The notes under the pieces: model-generated | The model's input: the letters and a program-made list of their open reading frames with translations, nothing else | The model's database searches: none | What the model was told of the DNA's origin: nothing | Shown: in pieces, positions 13,375-45,143 of the stretch | How the letters are laid out: every line of letters begins with the position of its first letter | How positions within the stretch are numbered: the first letter of the stretch is position 1 | Translations under genes and position numbers: made by a program | Source: an uncultured Rhodoferax sp. | GTDB lineage: Bacteria > Pseudomonadota > Gammaproteobacteria > Burkholderiales > Burkholderiaceae_C | NCBI GenBank assembly: GCA_964538895.1 | Contig: CAZIGL010000002.1 | Location: forward strand, 141,931 to 205,930 | Direction of reading: 5' to 3' | DNA length: 64,000 nt

Positions 13375-13387
13375 CCGACCAGTCGTT

Positions 13388-13966: not shown

Positions 13967-14000
13967 GCAGTGGAATGGTTGTTAACAACAGAAGTCGCTA

Positions 14001-14027: not shown

Positions 14028-14065
14028 AGCCCAAGGGCTAAAAAATTTGGCGAACCTGTGCAGCA

Positions 14066-14093
14066 GAAAAAAAAGCGGGCTAAAAGGCCCGCT
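14066..14093 (-). terminator. rho-independent terminator after the FKBP gene
   Basis: Minus strand reads AGCGGGC-CTTTTA-GCCCGCT followed by T8. Confidence 0.8.
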
Positions 14094-14131
14094 GGTTCAT
14101 TTTGGCAGCCCGGGCGCCTGATGGCCAGGGT

Positions 14132-14482: not shown

Positions 14483-14517
14483 ATGAGAATAGTGGTTGGG
14501 GGGTTGAAAGAAATGTT

Positions 14518-14829
14518 TTACGCCTGCGCTGGCGTCAGGCTGCTGACCCATTTGTTGGCAAATGCGGACAGATCACCCATGCGCTTGAGCAAGTTCAGGC
14601 CCATGGGCGTGATCAGATAGCCATCGCTGCCGTGGTCGATAAAGCCCGCCGCGCGCAATTCCTTGATACGGGTGTTGAGGGTGTTGGGGGTGATGCGTCC
14701 GACGCTGTCTTGCAAAATACGAAAAGTCTGCGGGTGACCGTCTTTGAGCGCCCACAGCACCCGGATGGCGTAGCGTGACTCCAGCAAACTCAGGAGTTGA
14801 CCGATGGCTGCATTGTTTTTTAAGGTCAT
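14518..14829 (-). CDS. winged-helix (HxlR-like) transcriptional regulator
   Basis: MTLKNNAAIGQLLSLLESRYAIRVLWALKDGHPQTFRILQDSVGRITPNTLNTRIKELRAAGFI. Confidence 0.6.
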   Translation of the reverse strand: MTLKNNAAIGQLLSLLESRYAIRVLWALKDGHPQTFRILQDSVGRITPNTLNTRIKELRAAGFIDHGSDGYLITPMGLNLLKRMGDLSAFANKWVSSLTPAQA

Positions 14830-14950
14830 GAAACGCGTCTCCTGGGGCATCTACGTAAGAAAACCTGAACCGGCTGGTGATGCCTGTTTCAGATGCCAAT
14901 CTGGTGAATTTTTAAACAACAGCGCAGCTTGATTGGCTACATGAGAAATA

Positions 14951-15048
14951 GGTGACGAGCCTGACCCCGGCACTGGCTCCACAGTTAGGGCTGCTTGGTT
15001 CCCCACCTGACCCGGTTGGCCGCTTTACCATGCGGGAAGGCCCGTCGA
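14951..15048 (-). ncRNA. ffs: signal recognition particle RNA (4.5S, small bacterial type)
   Basis: Minus strand reads ...CCCGCAUGGUAAAGCGGCCAACCGGGUCAGGUGGGGAACCAAGCAGCCCUAACUGUGGAGCCAGUGCCGGGGUCAGGCUCGUC. This aligns with the E. coli 4.5S domain IV (GGUCAGGUCCGGAAGGAAGCAGCC). The GGAA tetraloop is kept, with a compensatory CC/GG to GG/CC swap. The termini GACGGGCCU and AGGCUCGUC pair. Ends are good to about 5 nt. Confidence 0.85.
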
Positions 15049-15064
15049 GTGGAATTGTAAAGCC

Positions 15065-15403
15065 TTAAGCCTCGGTCAGATCTTTGGTGGGGGCTTGCGG
15101 CGCGTTGCTCTTGACGGACGCAATGCCGTTGTCGCGGGCTGCTTCAGTGGTGTACATCTCGCTGCGGCCAATCACCTGGCCGTTGCCGGCCTTCAGGCTG
15201 AAATAAGGCTGGCCCGACGTGGACTCGGCACGCACGAAACGCTCGTCCATGACGGCGTTGGTTTTGCATGATTCAATGCCCTGGGTGGCGGCGGCTTTGG
15301 CTTCGTACATCTGGCTGGTCAGAATCACCTGGCCATTGCCCGCTTTCAGGTTGAACATGAATTTTCCGTTTGTTGATTTGCTGAGTTCAAATTTACCAGC
15401 CAT
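15065..15403 (-). CDS. YegP-family (DUF1508 tandem) protein
   Basis: ORF 15065..15520. ATG 15403 gives MAGKFELSKSTNGKFMFNLKAGNGQVILTSQMY... with a second repeat FSLKAGNGQVIGRSEMY. Confidence 0.8.
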   Translation of the reverse strand: MAGKFELSKSTNGKFMFNLKAGNGQVILTSQMYEAKAAATQGIESCKTNAVMDERFVRAESTSGQPYFSLKAGNGQVIGRSEMYTTEAARDNGIASVKSNAPQAPTKDLTEA

Positions 15404-15513
15404 GATTTTTTCCTTCAGGGGTGTCAAATGGGTTGAAAGCGCCGGGCGGGTATTTGACAAAACCTCCCGGCAAAATAACTTTACCGTTTTTTTTGGGCAT
15501 TTAGAATCAGGAA

Positions 15514-29227: not shown

Positions 29228-29312
29228 GGGGGGGCGGGCGGTCCGGGAATCAGAAAAACATGCGTTACGCTGCAGGCCTTGACCCGCGCTGCAGCGCAAC
29301 GCCCCACCCGCG

Positions 29313-29522
29313 TTATTTGGTCACTTCGTGGCCAATCACGCCACCCACGGCGGCGCCGGCGGCTGTGCCCAACAGGCCGCCACCCAAGACGTTGCCGGCA
29401 ACACCGCCAATGGCAGCACCGGTGGCCGTGCCCTTTTCCTGGTATGTCATGCCGGCGCAGCCGCCCAGACCCAGGGCGGTCAACAAAAGTACGGCGGCAG
29501 AAATGCGTTGGGTAAAGTTCAT
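29313..29522 (-). CDS. glycine-zipper small lipoprotein (OsmB-like)
   Basis: MNFTQRISAAVLLLTALGLGGC... followed by GAAIGGVAGNVLGGGLLGTAAGAAVGGVIG. Confidence 0.8.
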   Translation of the reverse strand: MNFTQRISAAVLLLTALGLGGCAGMTYQEKGTATGAAIGGVAGNVLGGGLLGTAAGAAVGGVIGHEVTK

Positions 29523-29745
29523 GAGAATTCTCCATTCGGTTAAAGATCAAGCCGTGCAACGCAGCGCTTGCTGGCACGGAGGAGCTTGCATTGTTGAATC
29601 CCAGCGGCGCCCGGTCTGTGCGCTTGCGTACACACGCCGGCGCGACTTCGTGCTTGAATCGCCGGCATGGGTCGACCAACGCGTGTATAAGGACAGTTCA
29701 CCCCTATGGCATCTGGTCAGTTCTGCATCACAAGTCCCCCCCATT

Positions 29746-32700
29746 TTGAAAATTATTCCCAAGACATTGACCTGGCTCGCCGTTGCGTTGCTTTTGGTAA
29801 CGGGGGGCATCGCGTTCATGTTCTGGTCTTACCAGCAAATCTCGGACGCCGCCCTGCAGCGCCAGAACACCCGCATCGTTTTCGGCATGGCCAACGACCT
29901 GCTGTCTGGCTTGAAAGACGCCGACACCGGGCAGCGGGGCTACGCCCTGACGGGCAACGAGACCTACCTGAAGCCGTACCTGGCGGCGCGTGACCAAGTC
30001 ATTCCCGCTCTGTTGGCCTTGCGCAAAGAAGTTGGTAACGCCGATGCCCGGGCCATCCTGGACACCCTGGCGCCCCTGATCGAAGCCAAAATGGTCGACC
30101 TCGCCGCTGGCGTTGCCCTGACCCGTGCCGGTGACCAGAACGCCGTCCGATTGCCGATGGAAGGCGGCAGGGGCGAGCAGCTGATGGGCAATATCCGCAA
30201 CGGGATGGACAGCTTCATCCTGGCGCAGGCCACTGACCGCTTGCGCAACGAGGCCAGTTTTGACGCCGCCATGCGTCGCTTGCTGCTCATCTTGTTCGTG
30301 GTGGCCGCGCTGGCACTGCTGATTGCCTTGAATTTTGCCTATTTGATCTATCAAAAGTCACAGCAGCAGGTGAAGAGCCTGGTGCACCTGGAGACCCTGC
30401 ATTTGCTGCAGGCGCAGGAAACCAGCAACACCCTGCTGGCACAAGCCAACCACCGCTTGCAGGAAGGCGAGCAGCGGCTCTGGGTGACACTCAATTCGAT
30501 TGGCGATGGCGTCATCACCACCGATGCCGCCGCGTGTATCACGCTGCTGAATCCGGTGGCTGAAGCGCTGACCGGCTGGACGCAGGCGCAGGCGCTTGGC
30601 AAACCTATTGATGAAATATTTCATATCCTTACCAAGGACACCCGCACCCTGGCCCAGATTCCCGTGGCAGCGGCACTGGCCCACGGCACGGTGCAGGACC
30701 TGGCCAACCACACGGTGCTGATCTCCCGCGACGGGCGCGAGTTTGACATTGCCGACAGCTGCGCCCCGATTCGTGCCTTTGACGGCCTGGTGGTGGGGGC
30801 GGTGCTGGTGTTTCGCAATATTTCCGACGAATACGCGGCACAACAGGCCTTGCGCGACAGTGCTGCGCTGTTGCAAACCATTCTCAACACGGTGGCCGAT
30901 GGCCTGGTCACCATCCATGCCCAAGGCGGCATCATCGAGACCGTGAATCCGGCCATCGCGCACATGTTTGGCTACAGCGCGGCCGACCTCGGTGGCAAGC
31001 ATCTGAGTCTGCTGATTCCTGAACTGGACCGCGACCACCACAGCGGCTCGCTGGCCTATTACGGCGTCAGCGACGAGGACAGTGCCAACGGTGTAGGTCG
31101 CGAAGTGATTGGCCGGCGCATGAATGGCAGCACCTTTCCGCTGGAAATCGCCGTGCGCGAGATGACGCTGCGCGGCCAGCGCTACTTCACCGGTATTTTT
31201 CGCGACATCAGCGCGCGCAAACAGGCTGAAGAAGTGCGGCGCAAGGACGGCGCCCTGCAAAAAGCGATTTTTGACAGCGCGGTGTTCGCCAGTGTCGCCA
31301 CGGACGCCAAGGGCGTGATCCAGATTTTCAATGTGGGCGCCGAGCGCATGCTGGGCTACACCGCCGCAGAAGTGATGAACAAGATCACCCCGGCTGACAT
31401 TTCAGATCCACAAGAGATCATCGTGCGGGCCAAGTCCCTGAGCATCGAGCTCGAGACCAGCATCAGACCCGGGTTCGATGCCCTGGTGTTCAAGGCCTCG
31501 CGCGGTATTGAAGACATTTACGAGCTCACCTACATCCGCAAGGACGGCAGCCGTTTTCCGGCGGTGGTGTCTGTGACCGCGCTGCGCGATGCCCAGGAAC
31601 GCATCATTGGTTACTTGCTGATTGGCACCGACAACACGGTGCGCAAGCAGGTCGAGGCCGAGCGGGCACGGCTCGACCTGGTGCTGCAAAACAAGAACGT
31701 TGAACTGGAGCGCGCGCGCCGTCTGGCCGACCATGCGAATCAGGCCAAGTCAGACTTTTTGTCGAGCATGAGCCACGAACTGCGCTCGCCGCTGAACGCC
31801 ATTTTGGGCTTTGCCCAGTTGCTGCAGTCGGGCACGCCGCCACCGTCTGATACGCAAGCTGCCAGCATTGGTCAAATTCTCACGGCCGGTTGGTACCTGC
31901 TGGATCTGATCAACGAAATACTTGACCTGGCCCTGATCGAGTCCGGGCGCTTGTCGCTGTCGCTGGAGCCCACCTCGCTGCAGGACGTGCTGCAGGATTG
32001 CCAGGCCATGATTGCACCGCAAGCCGAGCAAAAGGGCATCCAGACCCAATTTCCACTCGTGGATGGCGACTGTTTTGTCAACGCCGACCGGACCCGACTC
32101 AAGCAGGTGCTGGTCAATTTGCTGTCGAACGCCATCAAATACAACCACCCCGGCGGTTTGGCCGAGGTGAGCTTTGCTCAGCACGCGGGGGGCCTTTTGC
32201 GTATCAGTGTGCGCGACAGTGGCGAAGGGCTGTCGGCCCAGAAGATTTCGCAATTGTTCCAGCCCTTCAACCGCCTGGGCCAGGAGTCGGGGGCCGAGGA
32301 GGGCACCGGCATCGGTCTGGTGGTGAGTCGCCGCCTGGTGGAGTTGATGGGGGGCCAAATCGGTGTCTCCAGCACGGTGGGTGTGGGCAGTGTCTTTTGG
32401 TTTGAGCTCAAGACCTCGCAACTACCCCGGCTGGTGCTTGATGAACTGCAGCCACTGGCCGGGCCGGTCACCCTGGCGCCAACAGGTGTGGCGGTGCGCA
32501 CCCTGCTCTATGTGGAAGACGATCAGGCCAACATGGCGCTGGTAGAGCAGCTCATTGCGCGCCGCCCGGACATGCGCCTGCTGGGCGCGCAAGATGCCAT
32601 GCGCGGAATTGCCTTGGCGCGGGCACACCATCCCGATGTGATTTTGATGGACATCAACCTGCCCGGCATCAGTGGCATGCAGGCGCTGGCCATCTTGCGT

Positions 32701-32889
32701 GAAGACACCGCGACCCGGCATATTCCGGTGTTGGCACTGAGCGCCAACGCCATGGCGCTTGACGTAGACAAAGGCCTGGCAGCCGGCTTTTTTTGCTACC
32801 TCACCAAGCCGATCCGGGTGCCGGAGTTCATGGCCGCGCTCGACAAAGGTCTTGCGCTGGCCGAAGTCCAGAGGCAACAGCCTTGTTAG
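29746..32889 (+). CDS. hybrid sensor histidine kinase: TM-CHASE3-TM, PAS x3, HisKA, HATPase_c, receiver
   Basis: ORF 29260..32889. Start is uncertain: in-frame TTG at 29746 lies just before the first TM helix (KIIPKTLTWLAVALLLV). CHASE3 motif GQRGYALTGNETYLKPY, H-box SHELRSPLN, G-box GTGIGL, REC DINLPGISG. Confidence 0.85.
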   Translation: MKIIPKTLTWLAVALLLVTGGIAFMFWSYQQISDAALQRQNTRIVFGMANDLLSGLKDADTGQRGYALTGNETYLKPYLAARDQVIPALLALRKEVGNADARAILDTLAPLIEAKMVDLAAGVALTRAGDQNAVRLPMEGGRGEQLMGNIRNGMDSFILAQATDRLRNEASFDAAMRRLLLILFVVAALALLIALNFAYLIYQKSQQQVKSLVHLETLHLLQAQETSNTLLAQANHRLQEGEQRLWVTLNSIGDGVITTDAAACITLLNPVAEALTGWTQAQALGKPIDEIFHILTKDTRTLAQIPVAAALAHGTVQDLANHTVLISRDGREFDIADSCAPIRAFDGLVVGAVLVFRNISDEYAAQQALRDSAALLQTILNTVADGLVTIHAQGGIIETVNPAIAHMFGYSAADLGGKHLSLLIPELDRDHHSGSLAYYGVSDEDSANGVGREVIGRRMNGSTFPLEIAVREMTLRGQRYFTGIFRDISARKQAEEVRRKDGALQKAIFDSAVFASVATDAKGVIQIFNVGAERMLGYTAAEVMNKITPADISDPQEIIVRAKSLSIELETSIRPGFDALVFKASRGIEDIYELTYIRKDGSRFPAVVSVTALRDAQERIIGYLLIGTDNTVRKQVEAERARLDLVLQNKNVELERARRLADHANQAKSDFLSSMSHELRSPLNAILGFAQLLQSGTPPPSDTQAASIGQILTAGWYLLDLINEILDLALIESGRLSLSLEPTSLQDVLQDCQAMIAPQAEQKGIQTQFPLVDGDCFVNADRTRLKQVLVNLLSNAIKYNHPGGLAEVSFAQHAGGLLRISVRDSGEGLSAQKISQLFQPFNRLGQESGAEEGTGIGLVVSRRLVELMGGQIGVSSTVGVGSVFWFELKTSQLPRLVLDELQPLAGPVTLAPTGVAVRTLLYVEDDQANMALVEQLIARRPDMRLLGAQDAMRGIALARAHHPDVILMDINLPGISGMQALAILREDTATRHIPVLALSANAMALDVDKGLAAGFFCYLTKPIRVPEFMAALDKGLALAEVQRQQPC

Positions 32890-32962
32890 CCGGGCAGAGC
32901 GTCGGTATGACACTGCTTTCTATTGATCTACCAGGCCGCAGGGCCTGACACAGGAGAACCTC

Positions 32963-35900
32963 ATGGCCACGCGCCCAAAAATCAAAGCCAAAGAGACCCT
33001 CAATGCTGTCAGCGCAGAGCCAGTGGTGGGGGTCCCACGTTTTCCGGTCATCGGCATCGGCGCGTCGGCGGGTGGCCTGGCCGCCATTGAGGCGTTTTTC
33101 TCGGGCATGCCAAACGATGTTGATCCCGCCATGGCCTTTGTGCTGGTACAACACCTGGACCCCGACCACAAAAGCCTGCTCGCCGAGTTGATCCAGCGGC
33201 GCACCCGCATGCAGGTGTTTGAAGTGGTTGATGGCATGGTGGTGCAGGCCAACTGCGTCTACATCATTCCACCCAACCGGGACATGGCTTTTCTCAGTGG
33301 CACGCTGCAGTTGCTGGAGCCCGCCGCACCGCGCGGGCACCGTTTGCCGATTGATTTTTTGTTTGCGTCGCTGGCCGCTGACCAGCAGGAGCGCGCCATT
33401 GGGGTGGTGCTGTCGGGCACCGGCAGCGACGGCACCCAGGGAGTGCGCACCATCAAGGCCGAGGGTGGCATGGTGATGGTGCAAAGCCCGACTTCGGCTG
33501 AATTTGACGGCATGCCGCGAAGCGCACTGGCCACCGGCCTGGTGGACTTTGAGCTGCCGCCAGCCGAAATGGCGGCGCAGCTGATGGCTTATGTGGCCCA
33601 CGCCCTGGGCCGACCACCGCACCCTGCCAGTGCGCTGACGGCGCTGGGCGGGAATGTTTTGAAAAAAATATTTGTCTTGCTGCGCGCCCAGACCGGACAC
33701 GACTTTTCGCAGTACAAGCCCAGCACCATTCACCGCCGCATCGAGCGGCGCATGGCGGTGCACCAGATTGACTCGATGGTGGGCTATGTCAAATACTTGC
33801 AGCAAACCCCGGTGGAAGTGCAAGCCTTGTTCAATGACCTGTTGATTGGTGTCACCAACTTTTTCCGCGACCCCGACGCCTTTGCTGCGCTGGAGGAAAA
33901 GGTCATCCCCAAGCTGTTCGAGGGCAAAGCCGTGGGTGGCGCCGTGCGCATCTGGTGCACCGGTTGCTCAACCGGTGAAGAAGCTTATTCGATGGCCATC
34001 CTGCTGCAGGAGCGGCTTGAATTGCTCAAGGCCAGCTACAAGGTGCAGGTGTTTGCCACCGACATCGACAGCCGCGCCATTGCCGTGGCCCGCGCAGGTG
34101 TTTATCCGGCCAGCATTGCCGAGCACGTGTCGCCAGAGCGCCTGGCAAGATTTTTTACGCTTGAGCCCGACGGCAGCGCCTACCGGATCCACAAAGGCAT
34201 TCGTGACCTGCTGGTGTTTTCGGTACAAGACGTCATCAAGGACCCGCCGTTCTCCAGGCTCGACCTGGTCAGTTGCCGCAACCTGCTGATTTACCTTGGC
34301 GCAGAGTTGCAAAAAAAATTGATCACGCTGTTTCACTACGCCCTGCAGCCCGGTGGCATGCTGTTTCTGGGCTCCTCCGAGTCTGCCGGCGAGCAAGGCG
34401 ACCTGTTTGCCGTGCTGGAGCGCAAATCCAAAATTTACCAGCGCAAGGAAGACTTTCAGGGCGCCCAGCGCGCCGCCCTGGGCCGATTTTTGCCACCTTT
34501 GATGGACCGAGCCATGTCACCCTCACCCGCCACCGAAAAAGAACCCCACCTGGCCAAAATTTCCTTGCGTGAGCTCACCGAGCAAGCCCTGTTGCAGCAA
34601 CTCGCGCTGGTCGCGGCGCTGGTCAACAGCCAGGGCGAGATTCTTTACCTGCATGGGCGCGCCGGCATGTACCTGGAACCCACGCCGGGTGAAGCCAGCA
34701 TCAACAATATTTTGAAAATGGCGCGTGAAGGCCTGCGCCGTGATCTCACGGTGAGCTTGCACAAAGCCGCCGCCAGCCACGAGATCGTGCGCACGCCGGG
34801 TTTGCGTGTCAAGACCAACGGCCACTTCACGCAGGTTGATTTGAGCGTTTGCCCGGTGTTGGGCGGCCCGACGGCAGCGCTGGCGTCGCCCTTGTTTTTG
34901 GTGACGCTGACACAAGCGCCCGAGAGCGACAGCGCCACCGTGTCGGCGCCGTCGCTCCTGCCGGTTATCAGCGCCGCTGCCGGCAGCGACCAACTGCACT
35001 CGGACGCGCGTGCCCATATTGCCGAACTTCAGGACGAACTTTTGGCCAAGGAAGAGTACCTGCGCGCCATCAACGAAGAGCTTGAAACCACCAACGACGA
35101 ACTCAAATCAAGCAACGAAGAAATGCAGTCGGTCAACGAAGAGCTGCAAAGCACCAATGAGGAGCTGGAAACCTCCAAGGAAGAAATGCAGTCGATCAAC
35201 GAGGAGCTCAGCACCGTCAACACCGAGTTGCAAACCAAGGTGGGCGATTTGTCACGTGCCAACAACGATATGAACAACCTGCTGGCGGGCACCGGCATTG
35301 CCACCATTTTTGTCGACTACAGCTTGCGCATCCTGCGCTTTACCCCGTCTGCCAGCCAGATCATCAACCTGATTGCCAGCGACGTGGGCCGCCCGGTGGC
35401 CCACATTGTGAGCAACCTGGTGGGCTACACCAGCCTGTTGGCAGACGTGCAGGAGGTGCTCAAGACCCTGATTCCGAGAGAGGCCGAGGTGCAAACCGTC
35501 GATGGCAAGAGCTACACCCTGCGTATCCTGCCCTATCGCACGCTGGACAACGTGATTGAGGGCGCCGTGGTGACCTTTGTCGATGTGACCGAGGTCCGGC
35601 GAACCCGTGAGGCGCTGCAAAAGGTCAACGCGCTGTTGCGCCTTGCGGTGGTGGTGCGCGACGCGCACGATGCCATCACCGTGCAGGCGCTGGACGGCCG
35701 CACCATTGCCTGGAACCCGGGTGCCGAACAGCTGTACGGCTGGTCTGAGGCCGAGGCCTTGCAACTCAATGTGAGCGACCGTATTCCCAAGGTGCTGCAG
35801 CCTATCGCGTTGAATCAGGTGCGCCAACTCAGCCAGGCGCAGACGCTGGCCCCCTTCAAGACCCAGCGCCTGACCAAGGACGGTCGCTGTCTCGATGTGT

Positions 35901-36010
35901 TGATGACCGCGACAGCTTTGCTCGATGAGACTGGCAAGGTGGACGCCGTTGCCACCACCGAGCGTGCCAGCGACGCCGAGACGGCACCAGATGGAGCGCC
36001 ACCACCATGA
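32963..36010 (+). CDS. CheB-CheR fusion protein with heptad coiled coil and C-terminal PAS domains
   Basis: AGGAGA RBS. CheB-like esterase motifs are GIGASAGG, LVQHLDPDH and SGTGSDG. CheR-like SAM methyltransferase motifs are FFRDP, IWCTGCSTGEEAYS and VSCRNLLIY. These are followed by eight heptads and two PAS-like domains. Confidence 0.9.
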   Translation: MATRPKIKAKETLNAVSAEPVVGVPRFPVIGIGASAGGLAAIEAFFSGMPNDVDPAMAFVLVQHLDPDHKSLLAELIQRRTRMQVFEVVDGMVVQANCVYIIPPNRDMAFLSGTLQLLEPAAPRGHRLPIDFLFASLAADQQERAIGVVLSGTGSDGTQGVRTIKAEGGMVMVQSPTSAEFDGMPRSALATGLVDFELPPAEMAAQLMAYVAHALGRPPHPASALTALGGNVLKKIFVLLRAQTGHDFSQYKPSTIHRRIERRMAVHQIDSMVGYVKYLQQTPVEVQALFNDLLIGVTNFFRDPDAFAALEEKVIPKLFEGKAVGGAVRIWCTGCSTGEEAYSMAILLQERLELLKASYKVQVFATDIDSRAIAVARAGVYPASIAEHVSPERLARFFTLEPDGSAYRIHKGIRDLLVFSVQDVIKDPPFSRLDLVSCRNLLIYLGAELQKKLITLFHYALQPGGMLFLGSSESAGEQGDLFAVLERKSKIYQRKEDFQGAQRAALGRFLPPLMDRAMSPSPATEKEPHLAKISLRELTEQALLQQLALVAALVNSQGEILYLHGRAGMYLEPTPGEASINNILKMAREGLRRDLTVSLHKAAASHEIVRTPGLRVKTNGHFTQVDLSVCPVLGGPTAALASPLFLVTLTQAPESDSATVSAPSLLPVISAAAGSDQLHSDARAHIAELQDELLAKEEYLRAINEELETTNDELKSSNEEMQSVNEELQSTNEELETSKEEMQSINEELSTVNTELQTKVGDLSRANNDMNNLLAGTGIATIFVDYSLRILRFTPSASQIINLIASDVGRPVAHIVSNLVGYTSLLADVQEVLKTLIPREAEVQTVDGKSYTLRILPYRTLDNVIEGAVVTFVDVTEVRRTREALQKVNALLRLAVVVRDAHDAITVQALDGRTIAWNPGAEQLYGWSEAEALQLNVSDRIPKVLQPIALNQVRQLSQAQTLAPFKTQRLTKDGRCLDVLMTATALLDETGKVDAVATTERASDAETAPDGAPPP
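35072..35239 (+). repeat. eight consecutive 21-bp (heptad) coding repeats inside the CheB-CheR fusion gene
   Basis: NEELETT NDELKSS NEEMQSV NEELQST NEELETS KEEMQSI NEELSTV NTELQTK, read directly. Confidence 0.9.
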
Positions 36011-37689
36011 GCCAGGAGCCTTTGACCACCGAGCAGCTGATGCACGACCTGCAGGTGCATCAGGTGGAGCTGCAACTGCAAAACGAGGAGTTGCGACGCG
36101 CGCAGTTGGCACTCGAGGTGTCGCACGCGCGCTATTTTGACCTCTATGACCTGGCGCCCGTGGGTTACCTCACGGTGGCGCCCAGTGGCCTGATTGTGGA
36201 AGCCAACCTGAGTGCCGCCACGCTGCTGGGTATTGCCCGCAGTGCCTTGGTCAAGCGGACCCTGAGCCGTTTCATTGTCAAGGACCATCAGGATACCTAC
36301 TACCAATGCCGTCGGCTATTGCTGGAAACCGGGCAATCGCAAAATTGCGAGCTGCAGGTCTTGCAAGGCGATGGTCTCATGCGGTGGGTCAGGGTGATTG
36401 TGAGTGCGGTTCAGGGGGATTCTGAGAAGCCCGCGCTGCGCGTCATCCTGACCGATATCTCCGAGCGCAAGCACCTGGATGAGGCTTTGCGGGAGACCAA
36501 TAAAAACCTGGAACTGGCCCGTACGCAGGCTGACCGTGCCAACCTGGCCAAATCCGAGTTTTTGTCGAGCATGAGTCACGAACTGCGCTCGCCCTTGAAT
36601 GCCGTTCTGGGTTTTGCGCAACTCATGGAGTCGGGCGCGCCGCCGCCCACCCCGAGCCAGCAGGCCAGCCTGGATCAGATTCTGAAAGGTGGCTGGTATT
36701 TGCTGACCCTGATCAATGACATTCTGGACCTGGCCTCGATTGAGTCCGGCCATGCGACCCTGACCATGGAAGCCGTGACGTTGAGCACCGTGCTGCAAGA
36801 TTGCCAGACCCTGATCGAGCCCTTGACGATAAGCCGCTCAGTGCAGGTCAGTTTTCCGGAATTGCCTGCCACCTGCCGTGTGCAGGCTGACCCGACCCGG
36901 CTCAAGCAGGTGCTCATCAACCTGTTGTCCAACGCCATCAAGTACAACCGGCCGCAGGGGACGGTAGAGGTGAGTTGTGAGAGCCCGGCAGCGGGTCGTT
37001 TGCGCATCTGCGTGCGCGACACTGGCCTGGGTTTGTCCGCGCAAAAACTCGCCAAACTGTTTCAGCCATTCAACCGGCTGGGTCAGGAAATGGGGGGTAC
37101 CAAAGGCACTGGCATCGGCCTGGTGGTGAGTCAGCGGCTGGTGCAGTCCATGGGCGGTGAGATGGGGGTGGACAGCAGGGAAGGCGAGGGCAGCCTGTTC
37201 TGGTTCGAGTTGGCGCTTGCTGACGCTGAATCGGTTTGCGCGAGTTGCGTCCTTGCGACCACGCAGCCTGTGCCCGTGCCGACGCTTGCGCCGCTCGATC
37301 CGGTGCGGCGCACGGTGCTTTACGTGGAAGACAATCCGGACAACATCGCGCTGGTGGCACAGTTGCTGGCCGAGCGCCCGGGCCTGCGCCTGGTGGGCGC
37401 ACCAGACGCCATGCGTGGCATGGCCATGGCGCGCGACCTGGCGCCAGACGTCATGGTGCTGGACATCAACCTGCCCGACATCAACGGCTATGAGGTGCTC
37501 CAGCTTTTGCAGTCCGACCCGGTCACCCGGCACATCCCGGTGCTGGCGCTGAGCGCCAATGCCATGCCGCGCGACGTTGACAAGGGTCTGGCCGCCGGCT
37601 TTTACCGCTACGTTACCAAGCCGATCAAGGTCGACGAATTTTTACAGGCGCTCGACGAGGGCCTGGCCCTGGCTGGAAAACGGGTCTGA
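36007..37689 (+). CDS. hybrid sensor histidine kinase: coiled coil, PAS, HisKA, HATPase_c, receiver
   Basis: The ATG overlaps the cheBR-fusion stop (ATGA). The kinase core and REC are about two-thirds identical by eye to those of the 29746..32889 kinase. Confidence 0.9.
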   Translation: MSQEPLTTEQLMHDLQVHQVELQLQNEELRRAQLALEVSHARYFDLYDLAPVGYLTVAPSGLIVEANLSAATLLGIARSALVKRTLSRFIVKDHQDTYYQCRRLLLETGQSQNCELQVLQGDGLMRWVRVIVSAVQGDSEKPALRVILTDISERKHLDEALRETNKNLELARTQADRANLAKSEFLSSMSHELRSPLNAVLGFAQLMESGAPPPTPSQQASLDQILKGGWYLLTLINDILDLASIESGHATLTMEAVTLSTVLQDCQTLIEPLTISRSVQVSFPELPATCRVQADPTRLKQVLINLLSNAIKYNRPQGTVEVSCESPAAGRLRICVRDTGLGLSAQKLAKLFQPFNRLGQEMGGTKGTGIGLVVSQRLVQSMGGEMGVDSREGEGSLFWFELALADAESVCASCVLATTQPVPVPTLAPLDPVRRTVLYVEDNPDNIALVAQLLAERPGLRLVGAPDAMRGMAMARDLAPDVMVLDINLPDINGYEVLQLLQSDPVTRHIPVLALSANAMPRDVDKGLAAGFYRYVTKPIKVDEFLQALDEGLALAGKRV

Positions 37690-37690: not shown

Positions 37691-38050
37691 TTATTTCGTC
37701 TCGTCAATCATCTGCGACATCTTTTCTTCGACCTCTTGCGCCACTGACGCCAACGAGGTGTCTTGAGACAAAGCGGACAGCATCGGCACCGGCCTGATCA
37801 TGCCGATCCGGGTAACACCTTTTTCGGTGAACACCGAAATGCGACACGGCAAGGCCATGTTCAGCAGCATGTCGAGGGACAAAACCTTCGCCGCCTGTGC
37901 CGGATTGCAGACCTCGAACACCTTGCACTCCTCCTCGAACGCAATGTCCTTGCTGACGTCCAGGGTAAAGCGGTTGTTCGCGGTGTCGAGCGTCAGTGCT
38001 GTCCATGGCACCGCAAAAAGCTTTCGCAAGGTGAATCTGGCAAGCGGCAA
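37691..38050 (-). CDS. DUF302-domain protein, N-terminus uncertain or truncated
   Basis: The C-terminal 90 aa (FEEECKVFEVCNPAQAAKVLSLDMLLNMALPCRISVFTEKGVTRIGMIRP...) look like DUF302. There is no ATG; a TTG at 38050 is possible. Upstream the frame is antisense to the EAL fragment. Confidence 0.5.
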   Translation of the reverse strand: MPLARFTLRKLFAVPWTALTLDTANNRFTLDVSKDIAFEEECKVFEVCNPAQAAKVLSLDMLLNMALPCRISVFTEKGVTRIGMIRPVPMLSALSQDTSLASVAQEVEEKMSQMIDETK

Positions 38051-38051
38051 A

Positions 38052-38324
38052 ATGACCAGCGCCGAGGCGCTGCTTCGATGGAACGATCCGCGCACCGGGC
38101 TGGTGCCGCCGGGCCGCTTCATCCCGATCCTGGAACAAACCGGCCTGATCCACGAGGTGGGCCGTTGGGCGCTGCGCCAGGCCGTCATGGACTACCTGGG
38201 CTGGCGTGCGGCGGGCCTGCCGGTGGTGCGCATTGCCGTCAATGTGTCGCCACTGCAATTGCGCGACCGTGGATTTATTGAGGAGGTGAGAAACGCCATC
38301 AGCCTGGACGCGCCGGTTTCTTAA
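38052..38324 (+). pseudogene. EAL-domain (c-di-GMP phosphodiesterase) fragment, about 90 aa of roughly 250
   Basis: MTSAEALLRWNDPRTGLVPPGRFIPILEQTGLIHEVGRWALRQA...RIAVNVSPLQL carries the EAL motif and the conserved N. It stops before the ExxE, DDFGTG and EGVE motifs, and there is no upstream sensor or GGDEF part. Confidence 0.75.
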
Positions 38325-38501: not shown

Positions 38502-38580
38502 CTCCGCCGGGAGGTCTGTGCGCCAACGAACCCAAGCCCTTCGGCACTCGCCCTACACTGGTTTCTACCGAGGTTTACCC

Positions 38581-39219
38581 ATGAAACACAAAGATGGCAC
38601 TGGAAATTTCCCGATCGTTTGCGTCGGTGGTTCGGCAGGCGGGCTTGACGCCTACATCCGCTTGCTGAAATGCCTGCCCGCCGACATGGGGGTGGCGATT
38701 GTGATCGTCAACCACATCACGCTCTTTCCCACGCAGCTGCACGAGGTGCTGCCACCCTTTACCCCCATGCCGGTCGAACTGATTACTGAAAACCTGGTGA
38801 TCGAGCCCAACCACGTGTTCATCATCCCAGCCAACCGGGATTTGCATGTGGAGGACGGCGTGTTTCATCTGAAGCCGATCTCCAAACCGCGCGGTTGGCC
38901 CGATGTGATCACGGTCTTTTTGAAGTCGCTCACCATGTACTGGGACGGCAAGCTGATTGCCGTGATTGTGTCGGGGTATGACGGCGACGGCGCGGCTGCG
39001 CTGTGCGGCATCAAGGAGGCGGGAGGCATCACGCTGGCGCAAAAGCTCAGCACCGCCATCCAGCCCGACATGCCCGAGAGTGCCATTGACACCGGTTGCA
39101 TCGACTTTGTGCTGTCACCCGAAGACATTGCCCAGGAAATTGTGCGCATTGCACAGCGCGAAGACATGGCGGTGACCCATGCCAGCATGGTCCAGCGACC
39201 CCATCCCCAAAGAAAGTAA
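38581..39219 (+). CDS. stand-alone CheB-type methylesterase/deamidase catalytic domain (no receiver)
   Basis: ORF 38518..39219, ATG 38581. Triad contexts are VGGSAGG (Ser), IVNHITLF (His) and SGYDGDGAAAL (Asp). It resembles the N-terminal domain of the 32963 fusion protein. Confidence 0.85.
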   Translation: MKHKDGTGNFPIVCVGGSAGGLDAYIRLLKCLPADMGVAIVIVNHITLFPTQLHEVLPPFTPMPVELITENLVIEPNHVFIIPANRDLHVEDGVFHLKPISKPRGWPDVITVFLKSLTMYWDGKLIAVIVSGYDGDGAAALCGIKEAGGITLAQKLSTAIQPDMPESAIDTGCIDFVLSPEDIAQEIVRIAQREDMAVTHASMVQRPHPQRK

Positions 39220-39381: not shown

Positions 39382-41814
39382 TCAACGCCCGCGCTTGCGC
39401 CTTGGCTTGGGGTGGTCCGCCAGATGGCAGGCGCGGCGGTAGGTTTGCAGGGTTTTCTGGGCGCGACCCAGCACCGTATCTGGCGCGTAGCCGCTGGCGG
39501 TGCCAGGCAAGCCGCTGGCAATGCCGGTCAGCAATTCAATGCCTTCGCTCACATGCTCGGCCGTGTACACGTGAAACCGGCCTTGTGCCACGGCTTGCGT
39601 CACCTGCTGGCTCAGCATCAGGTGGCGCCGGTTGCGCTGCGGGATCAACACACCTTGCTCACCATTGAGCCCGGCCTGTTCGCAGATGCGGTAAAAACCC
39701 TCTATTTTTTCGTTGAGGCCGCCCACCGGCAGCACCTCGCCGTGCTGGTTCACCGCGCCGGTCACCGCAATGCCCTGCTTGAGCGGCAGCCCCGACAGGC
39801 ACGACAGCAGCGCATACAACTCGGCACACGAGGCCGAGTCGCCCTCGATGCCGTGGTATTCCTGCTCAAACACCAGTGTGGCGTCCAGCGCCAGGGGTGC
39901 CTGGGCGGCAAAGAGCGTGGACAAATAGCTGTGCAAAATGAGCACGCCCTTGTCGTGGATCGGGCCTGACAGCGCCACTTCGCGCTCCACGTTCACCAGG
40001 CCGTCTTCGCCAGCCGAGGTGCGCGCCGTGACCCGCACCGGGAACCCAAAACGGTAGTCGCCCAGGTCGATCTGGGTCAGGCCGTTGATCTGGCCGGCTT
40101 TCTCGCCTTGCAGGCTGATCAGGCGCTCACCGTCGGTAATGGTTTCCTGCAGCCGCTGGTCGGGGTAGTTGTGGCGCAGCCGGCGCGCCTCCAGCGCGTT
40201 GCCCACATCATCGGCGTCCACTTTTGCGCCGCTGCGGGCATGGCACACCGCTGCTGCTTCCATCACCAGCGCCTCCATGCGGGCAAAGGCGGCGCTTTGG
40301 CGCGTCTGGTCGTCGACCTCGCGGTGCGCGTCTTCCAGCAAGCGCGCCACCGCTGCGGCCGTGAAATGCGGCAGGCCCAGGCGCTGGCAGGCGTGCGCCA
40401 CAAACACGGCGGACGCCGCATAGGTCTGCGCACTGGCGGCAAAGCTTTCGGCAAAGTCCACCTTGACGCGAAAGCGCCGGGCAAACTCGGGGTCGGCGTC
40501 TTGCAGCAGGTAATACTCTTCGGTGGCGCCAATCAGCACGATCTTGACGCTGATGTCAAGCGCCTCGGGGGTCAGCGACACCGTGGCCATGGGGGCAAAC
40601 ATCTGCATCGGCTCTTCAATTTGCAGGCGCCCGGTGCGCGAAAAGCGGCGCAACTTTTCCCACACCAGCTCGTCGGTCAGCAGCTCGCGCACGTGCAGCA
40701 TCAAATAACCGCCATGCGCCTTGAGCAGGCTGCCCGCCCGGATGCGCGAGAAATCGGTGAGCAGCACGTCTTCTTCGGCCTGGTACTCGACGCTGCCAAA
40801 CAGGCTGTGGTACGAGGGGTTGTCTTCAATCACCACGGGCGCGCCGTTCAAGGCCTCGTTGTCCACCACCAGGTTCACCCGGTAGCGCGCCAGCATGGTG
40901 GCCAGTTCCTCCTGGCGCAACTCTTCGTCCAGCCCGGCGCTGGCATCGGCTGTGCGGAAGGCCTCCAGGTTGTCCAGCACGTCTGTGGTCACCTGGTCAA
41001 AGTACTTGCCCAGCTTGACCGAGTCCTTGATTTGTTTCTTCAGGTCCATCCGGATTTCCTGCAATTCGTGTTCCAGCAGCGGCTTGATGGTCTGGCGCCG
41101 CAGCGCGGCCAGCCCCTCGTTTTTGAGGCGCTCGATGGGCCGCACCTTGTCCAGGTAGCGCGCAATCTCAGAACGCAGCTCCTGCTCGGCCACCTCCACC
41201 TGGGCGCGTTGCTCCTTGGGCAGCGAGCGCGCTTCGGTTTCGGTCAGGGCGTTGCCCGTGGCGCCCAGCAGGGTAAAGATCAGGTGGCCGTCTTCGCGGT
41301 ACAGGGCAAAGTTGCGCGCCTCGGCAAACGCGTCAAGCTCGGCATAGGCGCCAGCTTCTTCCAGCTTGCAGGTTTTTTCCAGGTGGGCGCATTCGGCCTT
41401 GAAGTCGGGCCCGTCAAGGCGTTGCGGAATCTCTTTTTGCAGCGTTTTGCACAGCTGTGCCATGTGCTGGCGCAGCTGCCGACCCTGCCCAGGCGGCATG
41501 CGCAGCGCGCGTGGCCGCTCTGGTGTGTCAAAGTTGTGCAGGTAGCACAGGTCGGGCGGTACCGCCCTGGTGGCAGCCACTTCGCGCATCAGCTGCGCCA
41601 GCAGCGACGAGCGGCCACTGCCGACCTCGCCCAGCACAAACAGGTTGTAGTCGGGCTGCGCCATGGCCAGCCCAAAACGTGCCGCCGTCTCGGCCCGCGC
41701 CTGGCCGATCCAGGGCAGCGGCTGCTGCAGCAGTTCGGAAGTGTCGCCAAAGTCCAGCGTGTCTGGGGCAATGCGCAGGGCAAGCGCGCCGGGGTCCAGG
41801 TGGCAAAGGGTCAT
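39382..41814 (-). CDS. Lon-like ATP-dependent protease (COG1067 type: AAA+ with insertion domain plus Lon S16 C-terminal domain)
   Basis: ORF 39382..42018. ATG 41814 gives MTLCHLDPGAL... Walker A GEVGSGRSS and protease motif IEGDSASCAELYALLS. Confidence 0.85.
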   Translation of the reverse strand: MTLCHLDPGALALRIAPDTLDFGDTSELLQQPLPWIGQARAETAARFGLAMAQPDYNLFVLGEVGSGRSSLLAQLMREVAATRAVPPDLCYLHNFDTPERPRALRMPPGQGRQLRQHMAQLCKTLQKEIPQRLDGPDFKAECAHLEKTCKLEEAGAYAELDAFAEARNFALYREDGHLIFTLLGATGNALTETEARSLPKEQRAQVEVAEQELRSEIARYLDKVRPIERLKNEGLAALRRQTIKPLLEHELQEIRMDLKKQIKDSVKLGKYFDQVTTDVLDNLEAFRTADASAGLDEELRQEELATMLARYRVNLVVDNEALNGAPVVIEDNPSYHSLFGSVEYQAEEDVLLTDFSRIRAGSLLKAHGGYLMLHVRELLTDELVWEKLRRFSRTGRLQIEEPMQMFAPMATVSLTPEALDISVKIVLIGATEEYYLLQDADPEFARRFRVKVDFAESFAASAQTYAASAVFVAHACQRLGLPHFTAAAVARLLEDAHREVDDQTRQSAAFARMEALVMEAAAVCHARSGAKVDADDVGNALEARRLRHNYPDQRLQETITDGERLISLQGEKAGQINGLTQIDLGDYRFGFPVRVTARTSAGEDGLVNVEREVALSGPIHDKGVLILHSYLSTLFAAQAPLALDATLVFEQEYHGIEGDSASCAELYALLSCLSGLPLKQGIAVTGAVNQHGEVLPVGGLNEKIEGFYRICEQAGLNGEQGVLIPQRNRRHLMLSQQVTQAVAQGRFHVYTAEHVSEGIELLTGIASGLPGTASGYAPDTVLGRAQKTLQTYRRACHLADHPKPRRKRGR

Positions 41815-42010
41815 GGTCTTGCTCCGGGTGGTGTGACGGCCAGTTTTTACTTGATTTACAAACCATGCCTTGACATCGCGCATGCTTGTATCAAGTTGTT
41901 GATCGCGTTGCTTATGTGTGGTGGCGCACTGACCAGCGCGGGCCGCTTGGCGCACCATGGCCACTTCGAAAATACTGTTCCAATCGCAGTCAGACAACCA
42001 GGAATAGACC

Positions 42011-42835
42011 ATGCCCATGACGCTCGAAATTCATCAGGCCAGCATTCTGATCGTTGACGATCAGCCGGCCAACGTGCAGTTGCTGGAGCAGTTGCTGGCC
42101 GATGCCGGTTACACGCAGGTGACATCCACCATGAAACCCGAAGAGGTGTGCGCGCTGCACCGCAAAAACAGTTACGACCTGATCCTGCTCGACCTGCAAA
42201 TGCCGGTCATGGACGGGTTTCAGGTGATGGAAGGGCTCAAGACCAACGTTGCCGACGATTACCTGCCGGTGATCGTGCTGACGGCCCAACCGGGCCACAA
42301 GCTGCGCGCGTTGGCGGTCGGGGCCAAAGACTTCATCAGCAAGCCGTTTGACCTGGTCGAGGTCAAGACACGCATCCACAACATGCTCGAAGTGCGCTTG
42401 CTGTACCGCAAGCTGGCCGACTACAACAAAGAGCTGGAAGCCGCAGTGGCCGAGCGCACGGCCGAACTGCGCGAAAGCGAGGCGCGCTACCGCAGCCTGA
42501 CCGAATTGGCCTCGGACTGGTACTGGGAGCAGGATGAAAGCGGCCAGTTCAGCAAGGTGTCCGGGCCGGTGCTGGAAATGCTGGGCATTCAGGTGGCGCC
42601 GCTCAGTGGCGAACCAGGCAAGGCCCAGGTCAGCGGCTGGAACGAGGATGAGCGCACCAAGCTGCGCGGCATCATTGCCAACCGCCAGCCCTTTCTTGAC
42701 TTTGTGTTTCATCGTGCCAATGCCGATGGCAGCAAACAAAGCTTTCAGGTCAGCGGCGAGCCCATGTTCAACAGCAACAGCCGTTTCATCGGCTACCGAG
42801 GCATCGGGGTGGAGCTGACCTCGAAATTCAACTAA
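42011..42835 (+). CDS. response regulator: receiver plus coiled coil plus PAS, no recognisable output domain
   Basis: ILIVDDQPANVQLL...DLILLDLQMPVMDG...SKPF, then ERTAELRESEARYRSLTELASDWYWEQD. Confidence 0.88.
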   Translation: MPMTLEIHQASILIVDDQPANVQLLEQLLADAGYTQVTSTMKPEEVCALHRKNSYDLILLDLQMPVMDGFQVMEGLKTNVADDYLPVIVLTAQPGHKLRALAVGAKDFISKPFDLVEVKTRIHNMLEVRLLYRKLADYNKELEAAVAERTAELRESEARYRSLTELASDWYWEQDESGQFSKVSGPVLEMLGIQVAPLSGEPGKAQVSGWNEDERTKLRGIIANRQPFLDFVFHRANADGSKQSFQVSGEPMFNSNSRFIGYRGIGVELTSKFN

Positions 42836-42867
42836 AAAATAAAAAAATAAAACAGGCAGGGCTACTC

Positions 42868-43584
42868 ATGTCATTCCCTCAGAACCCCAATCAGAACCAT
42901 CTTCTGGCGGCTTTGCCGAGCAAAGATTTCGAAGCCCTGGCAGCGGACCTGGAACTGGTGCCGCTGGCACTGGGCCAGATGCTCTATGACCCCGGCACGC
43001 AAATGCGCCATGCCTACTTTCCCACCACCGCCATCGTGTCGCTGCACTATGTGACCGAATCCGGCGCGTCGGCCGAGACCGCCGGCGTGGGCAACGAGGG
43101 TGTGGTGGGTATTTCGTTGTTCATGGGCGGCGACACCACGTCAAGCTCGGCGGTGGTGCAAACCGCAGGCCAAGCCTACCGGCTCGAGCGTCACCTGTTG
43201 AAACAGGCGTTTGACGAGGCCGGGCCCCTGCAGCGCCTGCTGCTGCGCTACACCCAGGCTCTGATGACGCAAATGGCGCAAACCGCCGCCTGCAACCGCC
43301 ACCATGCGGTTGAGCAGCAATTGTGCCGCTGGCTGCTGCTGACGCTGGACCGCCTGCCCGACCGCGAGCTGGTGATGACCCAGGAGCTGGTGGCCAGCAT
43401 GTTGGGCGTGCGCCGTGAAAGCGTGACCGACGCGGCCGGCCACCTGCAAACCCTGGGCTACATCCGCTACCGGCGTGGCCACATTGGTGTGCTCGACCGC
43501 GCCGGGCTTGAATCAAAAGCCTGTGAGTGCTACGGCGTGGTCAAGAAAGAGCTCAACCGCTTGCTCAACGACGTACGCCTCTGA
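42868..43584 (+). CDS. Crp/Fnr-family transcriptional regulator
   Basis: A cNMP-binding beta-roll followed by a C-terminal HTH (TQELVASMLGVRRESVTDAAGHLQTLGYI). Confidence 0.85.
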   Translation: MSFPQNPNQNHLLAALPSKDFEALAADLELVPLALGQMLYDPGTQMRHAYFPTTAIVSLHYVTESGASAETAGVGNEGVVGISLFMGGDTTSSSAVVQTAGQAYRLERHLLKQAFDEAGPLQRLLLRYTQALMTQMAQTAACNRHHAVEQQLCRWLLLTLDRLPDRELVMTQELVASMLGVRRESVTDAAGHLQTLGYIRYRRGHIGVLDRAGLESKACECYGVVKKELNRLLNDVRL

Positions 43585-44297: not shown

Positions 44298-45143
44298 ATG
44301 AAGAACCGCATCATCAACGTCAAAGGCGCCGCTGTCACTATCGCGACCCACCACGAGCAAGACTACATTTCTTTGACCGACATGGTGAAAAGTTTTGAGG
44401 GTGGCAGTGCGCTAATTGAACAATGGTTGAAAAACAAGGATACGGTTCTTTTTCTTGGGGTGTGGGAACAGCTTAACAATTTGGGTTTCAATTCCCCCGA
44501 ATTCGAGGGAATTAGAAATGAGGCTGGGCGCAACAGCTTCTTCCTTTCGGCGAAGAAGTGGATAAATGCAACCAACGCCATCGGCCTGCATGCCAAGGCT
44601 GGCCGCTACGGTGGCACCTTCGCGCACAAAGACATTGCCTTTGAATTCGGCTCTTGGCTGAGCCCGGAGTTCAAGCTGTATCTCATCAAGGAATTCCAGC
44701 GCCTCAAGGATGAAGAATCACGCACTACTGCTCTGGAATGGAACTTCCAGCGCACTTTGTCCAAGGTCAATTACAAAATCCATACCGATGCCATCAAAGA
44801 GCGACTTGTCCCGCCGCGCCTGACATCCGCACAAACAAGCATCATCTACGCCAGTGAAGCAGATTTGCTCAACGTTGCCCTGTTTGGCTTGACCGCCGCT
44901 CATTGGCGGCAAGACAATCCGGATCAGAGCGGCAACATGCGCGATGCAGCCACCCTCGAACAATTGGTGGTGCTGTCCAACCTGGAAAGCATTAACGCGG
45001 TATTCATCCACCAGGGGCTTGGTTCAAAAGACCGCCTCGCGCAACTCAACGCCGTTGCCATTACGCAGATGCGTTCGCTGATTGGCTTGAACGCAATGCA
45101 ACAACTTTCAAAAGCTGGCACCATGAAAAAGATCGCCAAGTGA
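44298..45143 (+). CDS. KilA-N domain-containing protein
   Basis: GGGAGA RBS. YISLTDMVK...GTFAHKDIAFEFGSWLSPEFKLYLIKEFQRL fits KilA-N. GC content and codon usage are visibly lower than in the flanks. Confidence 0.8.
   Translation: MKNRIINVKGAAVTIATHHEQDYISLTDMVKSFEGGSALIEQWLKNKDTVLFLGVWEQLNNLGFNSPEFEGIRNEAGRNSFFLSAKKWINATNAIGLHAKAGRYGGTFAHKDIAFEFGSWLSPEFKLYLIKEFQRLKDEESRTTALEWNFQRTLSKVNYKIHTDAIKERLVPPRLTSAQTSIIYASEADLLNVALFGLTAAHWRQDNPDQSGNMRDAATLEQLVVLSNLESINAVFIHQGLGSKDRLAQLNAVAITQMRSLIGLNAMQQLSKAGTMKKIAK

Follow-up and report, generated by a model that had tools for sequence, protein, structure and literature searches.

The 64,000-nucleotide (nt) stretch of DNA analyzed here (the window), from an uncultured Rhodoferax sp. 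(contig CAZIGL010000002.1), encodes a CheB-CheR fusion protein, and comparison with related loci identifies its conserved partner as the downstream gene only, by way of an N-terminal module in which a long helix runs into a PAS domain. The fusion gene, g2, is the middle one of three consecutive (+) strand genes at 29746–37689 (positions refer to the whole stretch) and is flanked by two hybrid histidine kinase genes: g3, which carries the helix-PAS module, and g1, a lineage-specific upstream member. Chemoreceptors are the only known class of substrate for CheR and CheB, both of them textbook enzymes. We judge the chances to be about even that the locus is the Rhodoferax-type copy of a widespread signaling module that is independent of chemotaxis arrays and acts via helices on PAS sensors. 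The comparison gives the receiver-less fusion, which occurs in thousands of genomes, a constant partner, two short invariant acidic helices that are candidates for methylation or docking, and a fuller parts list.

A preliminary description of this DNA reported three co-directional genes, the first two separated by a 73-nt gap and the last two overlapping as ATGA; a 1015-amino acid (aa) fusion protein with CheB, CheR, a heptad coiled coil, and two PAS domains; and paralogous hybrid kinases on either side, both ending in receiver (REC) domains. The coordinates from the open reading frame (ORF) call and the Pfam domains bear all of this out. The spacing between g1 and g2 is 73 nt, the stop of g2 and the start of g3 share 4 nt, Response_reg is found in both kinases, and g1 and g3 align over 558 aa at 51% identity (E 1e-165), a region that covers PAS, transmitter, and REC. 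The statement that the window holds no cheA, cheW, cheY, methyl-accepting chemotaxis protein (MCP), or Hpt gene also stands, because Pfam scans of g1–g3 and of ~50 further ORFs (~90 aa or longer) covering the window returned neither CheA nor CheW, MCPsignal, or Hpt, and a single-domain CheY was likewise absent from the further ORFs. For comparison, 80 loci from a scan of species-representative genomes (full-length, 63–87% identity) and four earlier ones, 84 in all and cited below by L numbers, were annotated alongside the window by local profile searches.

The CheB-CheR Fusion Protein

The fusion gene (32963–36010, +) has a good Shine-Dalgarno sequence, AGGAGA, 5 nt before its ATG. Its product of 1015 aa opens with a CheB-type methylesterase domain at aa 28–212 (33044–33598, +; CheB_methylest hit at aa 30–207, E 2e-57), in which the esterase triad is present as Ser35 (GASAGG), His64 (VQHL), and Asp156 (GTGSDG). 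The Ser and His are conserved in at least 90%, and the Asp in at least 60%, of 151 diverse representatives, and all three are invariant in alignment A1. Because the CheB domain begins at residue ~28, there is no REC ahead of it, and Pfam detects Response_reg neither in g2 nor in CheB′, a stand-alone esterase encoded further downstream. The CheB domain is followed by CheR_N and the S-adenosylmethionine (SAM)-dependent methyltransferase CheR at aa 231–489 (33653–34429, +; Pfam aa 233–281 and 297–488, E 1e-50), with the motifs CSTGEEAYS, FATDID, and CRNLLIY and a basic RR..RR helix conserved across representatives. This part matches CheR in the Protein Data Bank (PDB) at E 7e-31; overall, the PDB entries closest to the fusion are the CheR and CheB of chemotaxis. 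Conservation of the catalytic Ser/His/Asp and of the SAM motifs suggests that both enzymes have been kept functional.

Beyond the methyltransferase lie a “mid” domain at aa 535–651 (34565–34915, +), weakly conserved, without a Pfam match, and with a predicted α/β PAS-like fold; a long helix; and PAS_10 (aa 770–876, E 6e-30) together with a C-terminal PAS domain (aa 894–998; 35270–35956, +), assigned from Pfam and from secondary structure predicted by AlphaFold2 (AF2). The full-length AF2 model, with a predicted template modeling (pTM) score of 0.27, is poor and was used for secondary structure alone. In one related locus (L058, 7977–10985), the fusion gene is split into CheB-CheR and CheR-mid-coil-PAS ORFs, owing either to a frameshift or to faulty assembly.

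No segment of the fusion protein is better conserved than the helix. In the AF2 secondary structure, it is continuous over 96 residues, aa 680–775 (35000–35287, +), with coiled-coil-type Pfam matches at 676–790, and some seven of its heptads follow the pattern [S/T]-x-N-E-E-L-[Q/E/K] (AINEELE/TTNDELK/SSNEEMQ/SVNEELQ/STNEELE/TSKEEMQ/SINEELS/TVNTELQ); their acidic pairs lie at 705/6, 712/3 (here Asp-Glu), 719/20, 726/7, 733/4, 740/1, and 747/8. Columns conserved to at least 90% make up 36% of the helix between aa 702 and 757, compared with 23% of CheR, 13.5% of CheB, 11% of PAS_10, and 0% of the C-terminal PAS domain. The Glu-Glu pairs are kept in 109–147 of the 151 representatives, which are 40–72% identical to g2, and the heptads persist in plasmid-borne homologues of only 38–44% identity from Sinorhizobium, Spirosoma, and Beijerinckia. 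Pfam finds no homology between the helix and MCPsignal. Methylation sites of MCPs, in the Escherichia coli type, have the form Glu-Glu-X-X-Ala-Ser/Thr at heptad spacing; the likeness of the NEEL heptads to such sites is suggestive, not strong. The helix is a candidate methyl-accepting or docking segment.

The Helix-PAS Partner

Among the 77 loci with at least 400 nt of downstream sequence, the next co-directional gene after the fusion encodes a helix-PAS protein in 74, and in 20 of these 74 the start of the helix-PAS gene overlaps the stop of the fusion gene by exactly 4 nt. In the window, this gene is g3 (36007–37689, +), which encodes a hybrid kinase of 560 aa with the order helix-PAS-HisKA-HATPase_c-REC and the phosphoacceptor His191 within SHELRSP. 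The N-terminal module at aa 11–57, LMHDLQVHQVELQLQNEELRRAQLALEVSHARYFDLYDLAPVGYLTV (36037–36177, +), is a long helix that runs into the first PAS strand. Its consensus in the family is LHELxVHQIELEMQNEELRR...RYFDLYDLAPVGY; the helix reads L-H-E-L-x-V-H-Q-I-E-L-E-M-Q-N-E-E-L-R-R-x-Q, then R-A-R-Y-F-D-L-Y-D-L-A-P-V-G-Y and the PAS core. In 192/192 distinct sequences, the Q and N of QNEEL are present; E, L, and R on either side are conserved in >94%. In a 40-sequence alignment of the 165-aa module, 7 of the 19 invariant columns fall within ten helix residues. The register L-x-x-x-N-E-E-L is common to the fusion helix and the partner helix.

An AF2 model of g3 aa 1–165 (predicted local distance difference test, pLDDT, 86.9) consists of a helix at 8–48, the PAS core, and a C-terminal helix. 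It superposes on dimeric PAS sensors (the short LOV proteins PpSB1/W619_1 and the PAS domains of FixL and DosP) with a Foldseek E of ~6e-9 and template modeling (TM) scores of 0.65–0.69, and it shares with them the sequence of N-terminal helix, PAS core, and C-terminal helix leading to the kinase. The identity to short LOV, FixL, and DosP is 12–24%, and what sets the module apart is its N-terminal helix, at 41 residues much longer than theirs, with a degree of conservation that far exceeds that of the PAS core. Within that core, Gln112, Glu115, and Trp127 are invariant and Cys114 is nearly so (g3 aa 112–127, ~36340–36390), which hints at a specific ligand or cofactor.

The outputs attached to the module are interchangeable: 26 of the helix-PAS genes encode hybrid kinases (histidine kinase with REC), 13 histidine kinases, 14 PAS-only proteins, and 8 proteins with GGDEF, with or without EAL. 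Two or three helix-PAS genes stand in tandem in L004, L026, L039, L057, L060, and L067. When the search was reversed, starting from three short helix-PAS proteins encoded on long contigs, the fusion turned out to be adjacent to one, 5 kb from another, and absent within 7 kb of the third. The CheB-CheR core is fused to the helix-PAS motif within a single protein in none of 150 representatives; a histidine kinase fused directly after the coil-PAS_10(-PAS) is found in 29 of the 150. In L001/L003 (18047–20229), which are close Rhodoferax relatives, the gene for a second helix-PAS protein, with a GGDEF output, is flanked by genes for a KaiC-like ATPase and a KaiB homologue at a distance of ~5 kb from that of the fusion, and a link of the helix-PAS module to a Kai-type timer is possible in this arrangement.

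The Upstream Kinase and the Fate of the Triad

The upstream kinase gene g1 (29746–32889, +) encodes a protein with the architecture transmembrane segment-CHASE3-transmembrane segment, three PAS domains, HisKA, HATPase_c, and receiver. Its frame is open from 29260 to 32889, and the TTG at 29746 proposed earlier as the start lies in frame and gives the protein an N-terminal transmembrane segment ahead of CHASE3. The phosphoacceptor is His677, again within SHELRSP, and the receiver Asp context read from the sequence is DINLP in both g1 and g3. The conserved N-terminal helix motif was not found in g1, nor was an EExx[S/A][S/T/A] site. A gene for a 69-aa glycine-zipper lipoprotein (29311–29522, −) is divergent to g1, and its position is kept in L001–L004. 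Promoter and terminator scans over 29.3–43.7 kb gave fewer hits than in shuffles and were uninformative.

The triad, which the preliminary description had put forward for survey as a conserved unit, does not hold up as one. Only close Comamonadaceae relatives have the g1-g2-g3 sandwich, which is retained in Rhodoferax L001–L003, L005, and L011; elsewhere, the upstream kinase varies or is absent. In the 55 loci with at least 3 kb of upstream sequence, the fusion is preceded by no signaling gene in 34, by a CHASE3 kinase in only 7, by a REC-GGDEF gene (itself preceded by a hybrid kinase) in 5, by an MCP gene in 4, by another hybrid kinase in 3, and by another GGDEF-type protein in 2. The loci with REC-GGDEF beside the fusion are L004, L010, L022, L033, and L075, and the REC is of the same type as that of the REC-PAS regulator encoded in the window.

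Displaced Downstream Members

The preliminary description overlooked three genes, for CheB′, a REC-PAS regulator, and a Crp-like regulator, all of which are part of the same conserved system in relatives. In Polaromonas L014, the order is uninterrupted: fusion, g3 orthologue, CheB′, REC-PAS, Crp-like. CheB′ (38518–39219, +) is a stand-alone CheB-type esterase without REC (CheB_methylest E 2e-42), the true start of which is probably the ATG at 38581. Its Ser/His/Asp motifs are present as GGSAGG, VNH, and GDGA, and it is 32% identical to the CheB domain of g2 and 86% identical to the product of L014 12908–13492, which directly follows the g3 orthologue. Of 50 loci, 14 have CheB′. Distant fusions in Spirosoma (L088, 4771–5823) and Beijerinckia (L089, 4736–5725) are likewise accompanied by a separate gene of the CheB-like kind. 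The REC-PAS response regulator of 274 aa (42011–42835, +) is 70% identical to the product of L014 13504–14331, which comes after CheB′ there, and has orthologues in 13–15 loci. It is followed in the window by a Crp/FNR-family regulator (42868–43584, +; cNMP_binding plus HTH_Crp_2), homologues of which are found in 22 related loci, directly after the regulator in ~12. Positions 42026–43565 align with L014 13525–15074 at 71%. No REC-GGDEF regulator is present in the window, the local regulator being the REC-PAS protein.

Relative to L014, the series in the window is broken twice: between g3 and CheB′ and between CheB′ and the REC-PAS regulator. The first break is occupied by a (−) strand DUF302 gene and by what is left, over 290 nt, of a GGDEF-EAL gene (38027–38316, +), 89% identical to part of the PAS-GAF-GGDEF-EAL gene that is intact in L001 (20226–22619); an EAL match at 37800–38324 was accordingly rejected as a gene. 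Compared with L001, ~6.9 kb is missing, including the KaiC-like ATPase, the helix-PAS-GGDEF gene, and the KaiB homologue. In the second break lies a gene for a Lon-like protease of 878 aa (39382–42018, −; LonB-type AAA, LonC helical domain, Lon_C). No homologue of it was found in the 84 related loci, and it therefore looks like an insertion into the operon.

Family Size and Horizontal Spread

The fusion protein is an ordinary member of a large annotated family (KEGG K13924). At least 8000 homologues were found, the top matches being from Rhodoferax and named “two-component system CheB/CheR fusion protein”; clustering at 50% identity (E ≤ 1e-30) gives 16791 clusters, a count that takes in plain CheB and CheR. 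The best 150 representatives, at 40–72% identity, all share the core CheB-CheR-mid-helix-PAS_10. Neither a solved structure of a fusion nor an NCBIfam model for it was found.

Homologues of 63–72% identity over 1000 residues occur in metagenome-assembled genomes (MAGs) labeled Acidobacteriota, Verrucomicrobiota, Lentisphaerota, Planctomycetota, Chloroflexota, Desulfobacterota, and Methanothrix, although individual MAG labels such as Methanothrix are doubtful. Mis-binning of Rhodoferax contigs was rejected as a general explanation of these matches, the G+C content (GC) of the flanks of the cross-phylum loci ranging from 0.43 to 0.77. In the low-GC hosts (L060, L026, L063, L079, and L023), the GC of the fusion gene is 5–13 points above that of its flanks (in L060, 0.561 versus 0.426), with 66–70% protein identity to the window. 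This mismatch suggests recent transfer of the cassette across phyla, and together with the high cross-phylum identity it suggests that the cassette spreads as a unit.

Relation to Known Systems

Annotated in many genomes as they are, CheB/CheR fusions were said in the preliminary description to have no established substrate or role, and this agrees with what was found: the searchable literature (much subscription literature lies outside it) yielded passing mentions only, and no published function, substrate, or partner motif for the family. The CheB/CheR chimera of Phaeobacter is not regulated together with the che genes, and in Rhodospirillum centenum a CheB/CheR hybrid is located outside the che clusters. 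Pseudomonas putida cfcABCDE is a published split analogue, so that tying CheB/CheR genes to hybrid kinases rather than to chemotaxis is not new. There, CfcB and CfcC are a CheB/CheR pair encoded beside the hybrid kinase gene cfcA, and a role of the pair in chemotaxis is stated to have been ruled out (PMC4951495). CfcA activates the REC-GGDEF regulator CfcR, which is under the control of the cluster, and the same study establishes no role for CfcB/CfcC (PMC4951495). As in the window, where g1 and g3 flank g2, CheB and CheR functions are encoded next to a multisensor hybrid kinase, and genes for REC-GGDEF proteins, the kind of output that cfcABCDE has, lie beside the fusion in the five relatives of the window named above. 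The two differ in that the Cfc enzymes are separate proteins, and the likeness described is one of gene content.

Within K13924, the domain order CheB_methylest-CheR_N-CheR-PAS_10-PAS is that of g2, which is 63–89% identical to many members and differs from them in nothing; what is new lies in its surroundings, where the helix-PAS partner is constant and genes for CheB′, REC-PAS, and Crp-like proteins are accessory. Compared with classical chemotaxis adaptation, the enzymes of g2 are homologous and have the same catalytic residues, and here, too, the candidate sites are pairs of Glu spaced by heptads along a long helix; EE-x-x-S-T is matched by one of the heptads. However, CheB of the classical system has a receiver that is phosphorylated by CheA, whereas neither g2 nor CheB′ has one; here, a single protein unites the two enzymes with PAS domains, CheA, CheW, and MCP are not encoded nearby, and Gln is all but absent from the acidic positions.

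A Proposed Mechanism and Its Alternatives

From the gene order, domains, catalytic residues, motif conservation, and pairing observed, we infer a course of methyl transfer, a substrate, and physical contacts that would be as follows. The core would be a gene pair, the fusion g2 and the translationally coupled downstream sensor g3, with the near-invariant helix and PAS domain of g3 acting as an adaptor that can carry any output, be it a kinase, a diguanylate cyclase/phosphodiesterase, or none. The Glu-Glu pairs that are invariant in the N-E-E-L heptads would be methylated and demethylated by the CheR and CheB domains; the likeliest site would be the long helix of the fusion itself, modified in trans within a dimer, and the one heptad that matches in the N-terminal helix of the partner may be another. 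The charge state of the helix would then set the conformation of the PAS_10-PAS end, and helix and PAS contacts would bias the g3 kinase, so that slow adaptation or memory would be superimposed on the PAS signal. The next recipient of the signal from g3 may be the REC-PAS regulator, with REC-GGDEF proteins in this place in relatives. CheB′ would be an accessory second esterase, and g1 a lineage-specific paralogous input kinase sharing the phosphorelay.

The appeal of reading the locus as methylation-based adaptation for PAS sensors is its economy, because it accounts at once for intact enzymes without receivers, for an exposed acidic helix that is more conserved than the enzymes, for a coupled partner with a matching helix and interchangeable outputs, for kinase fusions in a fifth of the representatives, and for the recurrent second esterase. 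The absence of REC from g2 and CheB′, taken with that of CheA, CheW, and MCP from the window, argues against any dependence on CheA. A more specific form of the proposal, in which the fusion and its helix-PAS partner are a self-contained, horizontally mobile methylation-memory cassette that methylates its own NEEL helix, possibly also the partner heptad, and tunes whatever output is attached, is one that we put forward tentatively, as somewhat more apt to be wrong than right. If it is true, CheR/CheB would for the first time have a defined class of substrates other than MCPs, and cytoplasmic PAS sensors in at least 8 phyla would have a general adaptation layer; confirmation of methylation as such would extend adaptation by reversible glutamate modification beyond chemotaxis arrays to two-component and cyclic di-GMP signaling.

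A number of observations weigh on the other side. For this enzyme family, MCPs are the only proteins that any experiment or structure is known to show as methylated. The strict E. coli-type consensus is matched by a single heptad of g2, EELQST (aa 726–731, with Ser for Ala), which weakens the argument from resemblance to MCP sites; the remaining heptads fit a relaxed consensus only, and the EELRR[A/T] of the partner helix does not fit. Unlike at many MCP sites, Gln is almost never found at the Glu positions of the fusion helix in the 151 representatives. The invariance of the two helices could reflect binding alone, and with a pTM of 0.27 the full-length model does not allow domain contacts, or the reach of the helix to the active sites, to be read. 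The pairing is documented only in the clade at least 63% identical to g2, and the plasmid homologues at 38–44% identity are without a helix-PAS partner. Lastly, genuine 4HB-HAMP-MCPsignal genes stand directly upstream of the fusion, and co-directional with it, in 4–5 Rhodoferax loci of one lineage (L006, 6252–7928; L065, 6015–7694; L036, 6643–7857; L031, 2–847; L029, 7334–7765), and a Lentisphaerae MAG (L023) carries MCP-CheW-CheR downstream, at 12932–16840.

The same MCP genes give some substance to the explanation that the fusion serves chemotaxis-type adaptation of classical MCPs whose genes lie elsewhere in the genome, with PAS domains standing in for the receiver as its regulator and with the neighboring kinases merely co-regulated. 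The canonical nature of the basic CheR_N helix, the SAM motifs, and the CheB triad would fit this, as would the PDB matches, and Rhodoferax species are generally motile. Yet the constant neighbor is the helix-PAS gene, in 74 of 77 loci, whereas an MCP adjoins the fusion in only ~7 of the 84, mostly in one Rhodoferax lineage, and no CheA, CheW, or MCP is encoded within the 64 kb. Homologues of the fusion are, moreover, found in Spirosoma, Prosthecobacter, and Victivallis, which are described as non-flagellated (a matter of phenotype only). With the Phaeobacter chimera not co-regulated with che genes and the P. putida pair reported to be non-chemotactic (PMC4951495), we regard service to distant MCPs as unlikely. 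The independence from chemotaxis claimed in the preliminary description fares well as to location outside a chemotaxis cluster, receiver-less esterases, and two-component and cyclic di-GMP neighbors; as a whole it is plausible.

In the preliminary description, reversible glutamate methylation was suggested to give adaptation or memory to a two-component phosphorelay. Put literally as reversible methylation of g1 and g3 by the fusion, with the substrate on the kinases only and not on the fusion, this would agree with the tight three-gene packing, the paralogy of g1 and g3, the near-invariant N-terminal helix of g3 with its NEEL unit, and the retention of the triad in the close Rhodoferax relatives. 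It finds no comparative support, because g1 is without the helix-PAS module, lacking both the conserved helix and an EExx[S/A][S/T/A] site, and in most loci the upstream kinase is missing or has another gene in its place. The module is also carried by GGDEF/EAL and PAS-only proteins, so that the target is not a kinase as such, and the fusion helix, the most conserved part, would go unexplained; kinase-only methylation accordingly seems to us distinctly improbable. That the fusion is mainly a PAS/coiled-coil scaffold or co-sensor that binds the partner helix, its enzyme domains being baggage or serving in binding only, we consider very improbable indeed. Both helices could be conserved for the formation of a heteromeric coiled coil or bundle alone, and the acidic pairs show no Gln/Glu alternation, but the Ser/His/Asp and SAM-binding motifs are conserved in the 151 representatives down to 40% identity, and a second intact esterase, CheB′, has been recurrently recruited.

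Other Features of the Window

The remainder of the window includes the housekeeping genes dnaK/dnaJ/grpE, dnaX, and recR, as well as genes for an RND efflux pump, for a P-type ATPase, and for the molybdenum cofactor. Just upstream of dnaX lies a bacterial small signal recognition particle RNA (Rfam RF00169, 62 bits; 14951–15046, −). An ORF of 281 aa at 44298–45143 (+) falls inside a patch of lower GC (0.574 over 44–46 kb) and may be foreign DNA. A protein with GAF and HD/HD_5 domains, encoded at 58379–59566 (+), is possibly another component of cyclic-nucleotide signaling.

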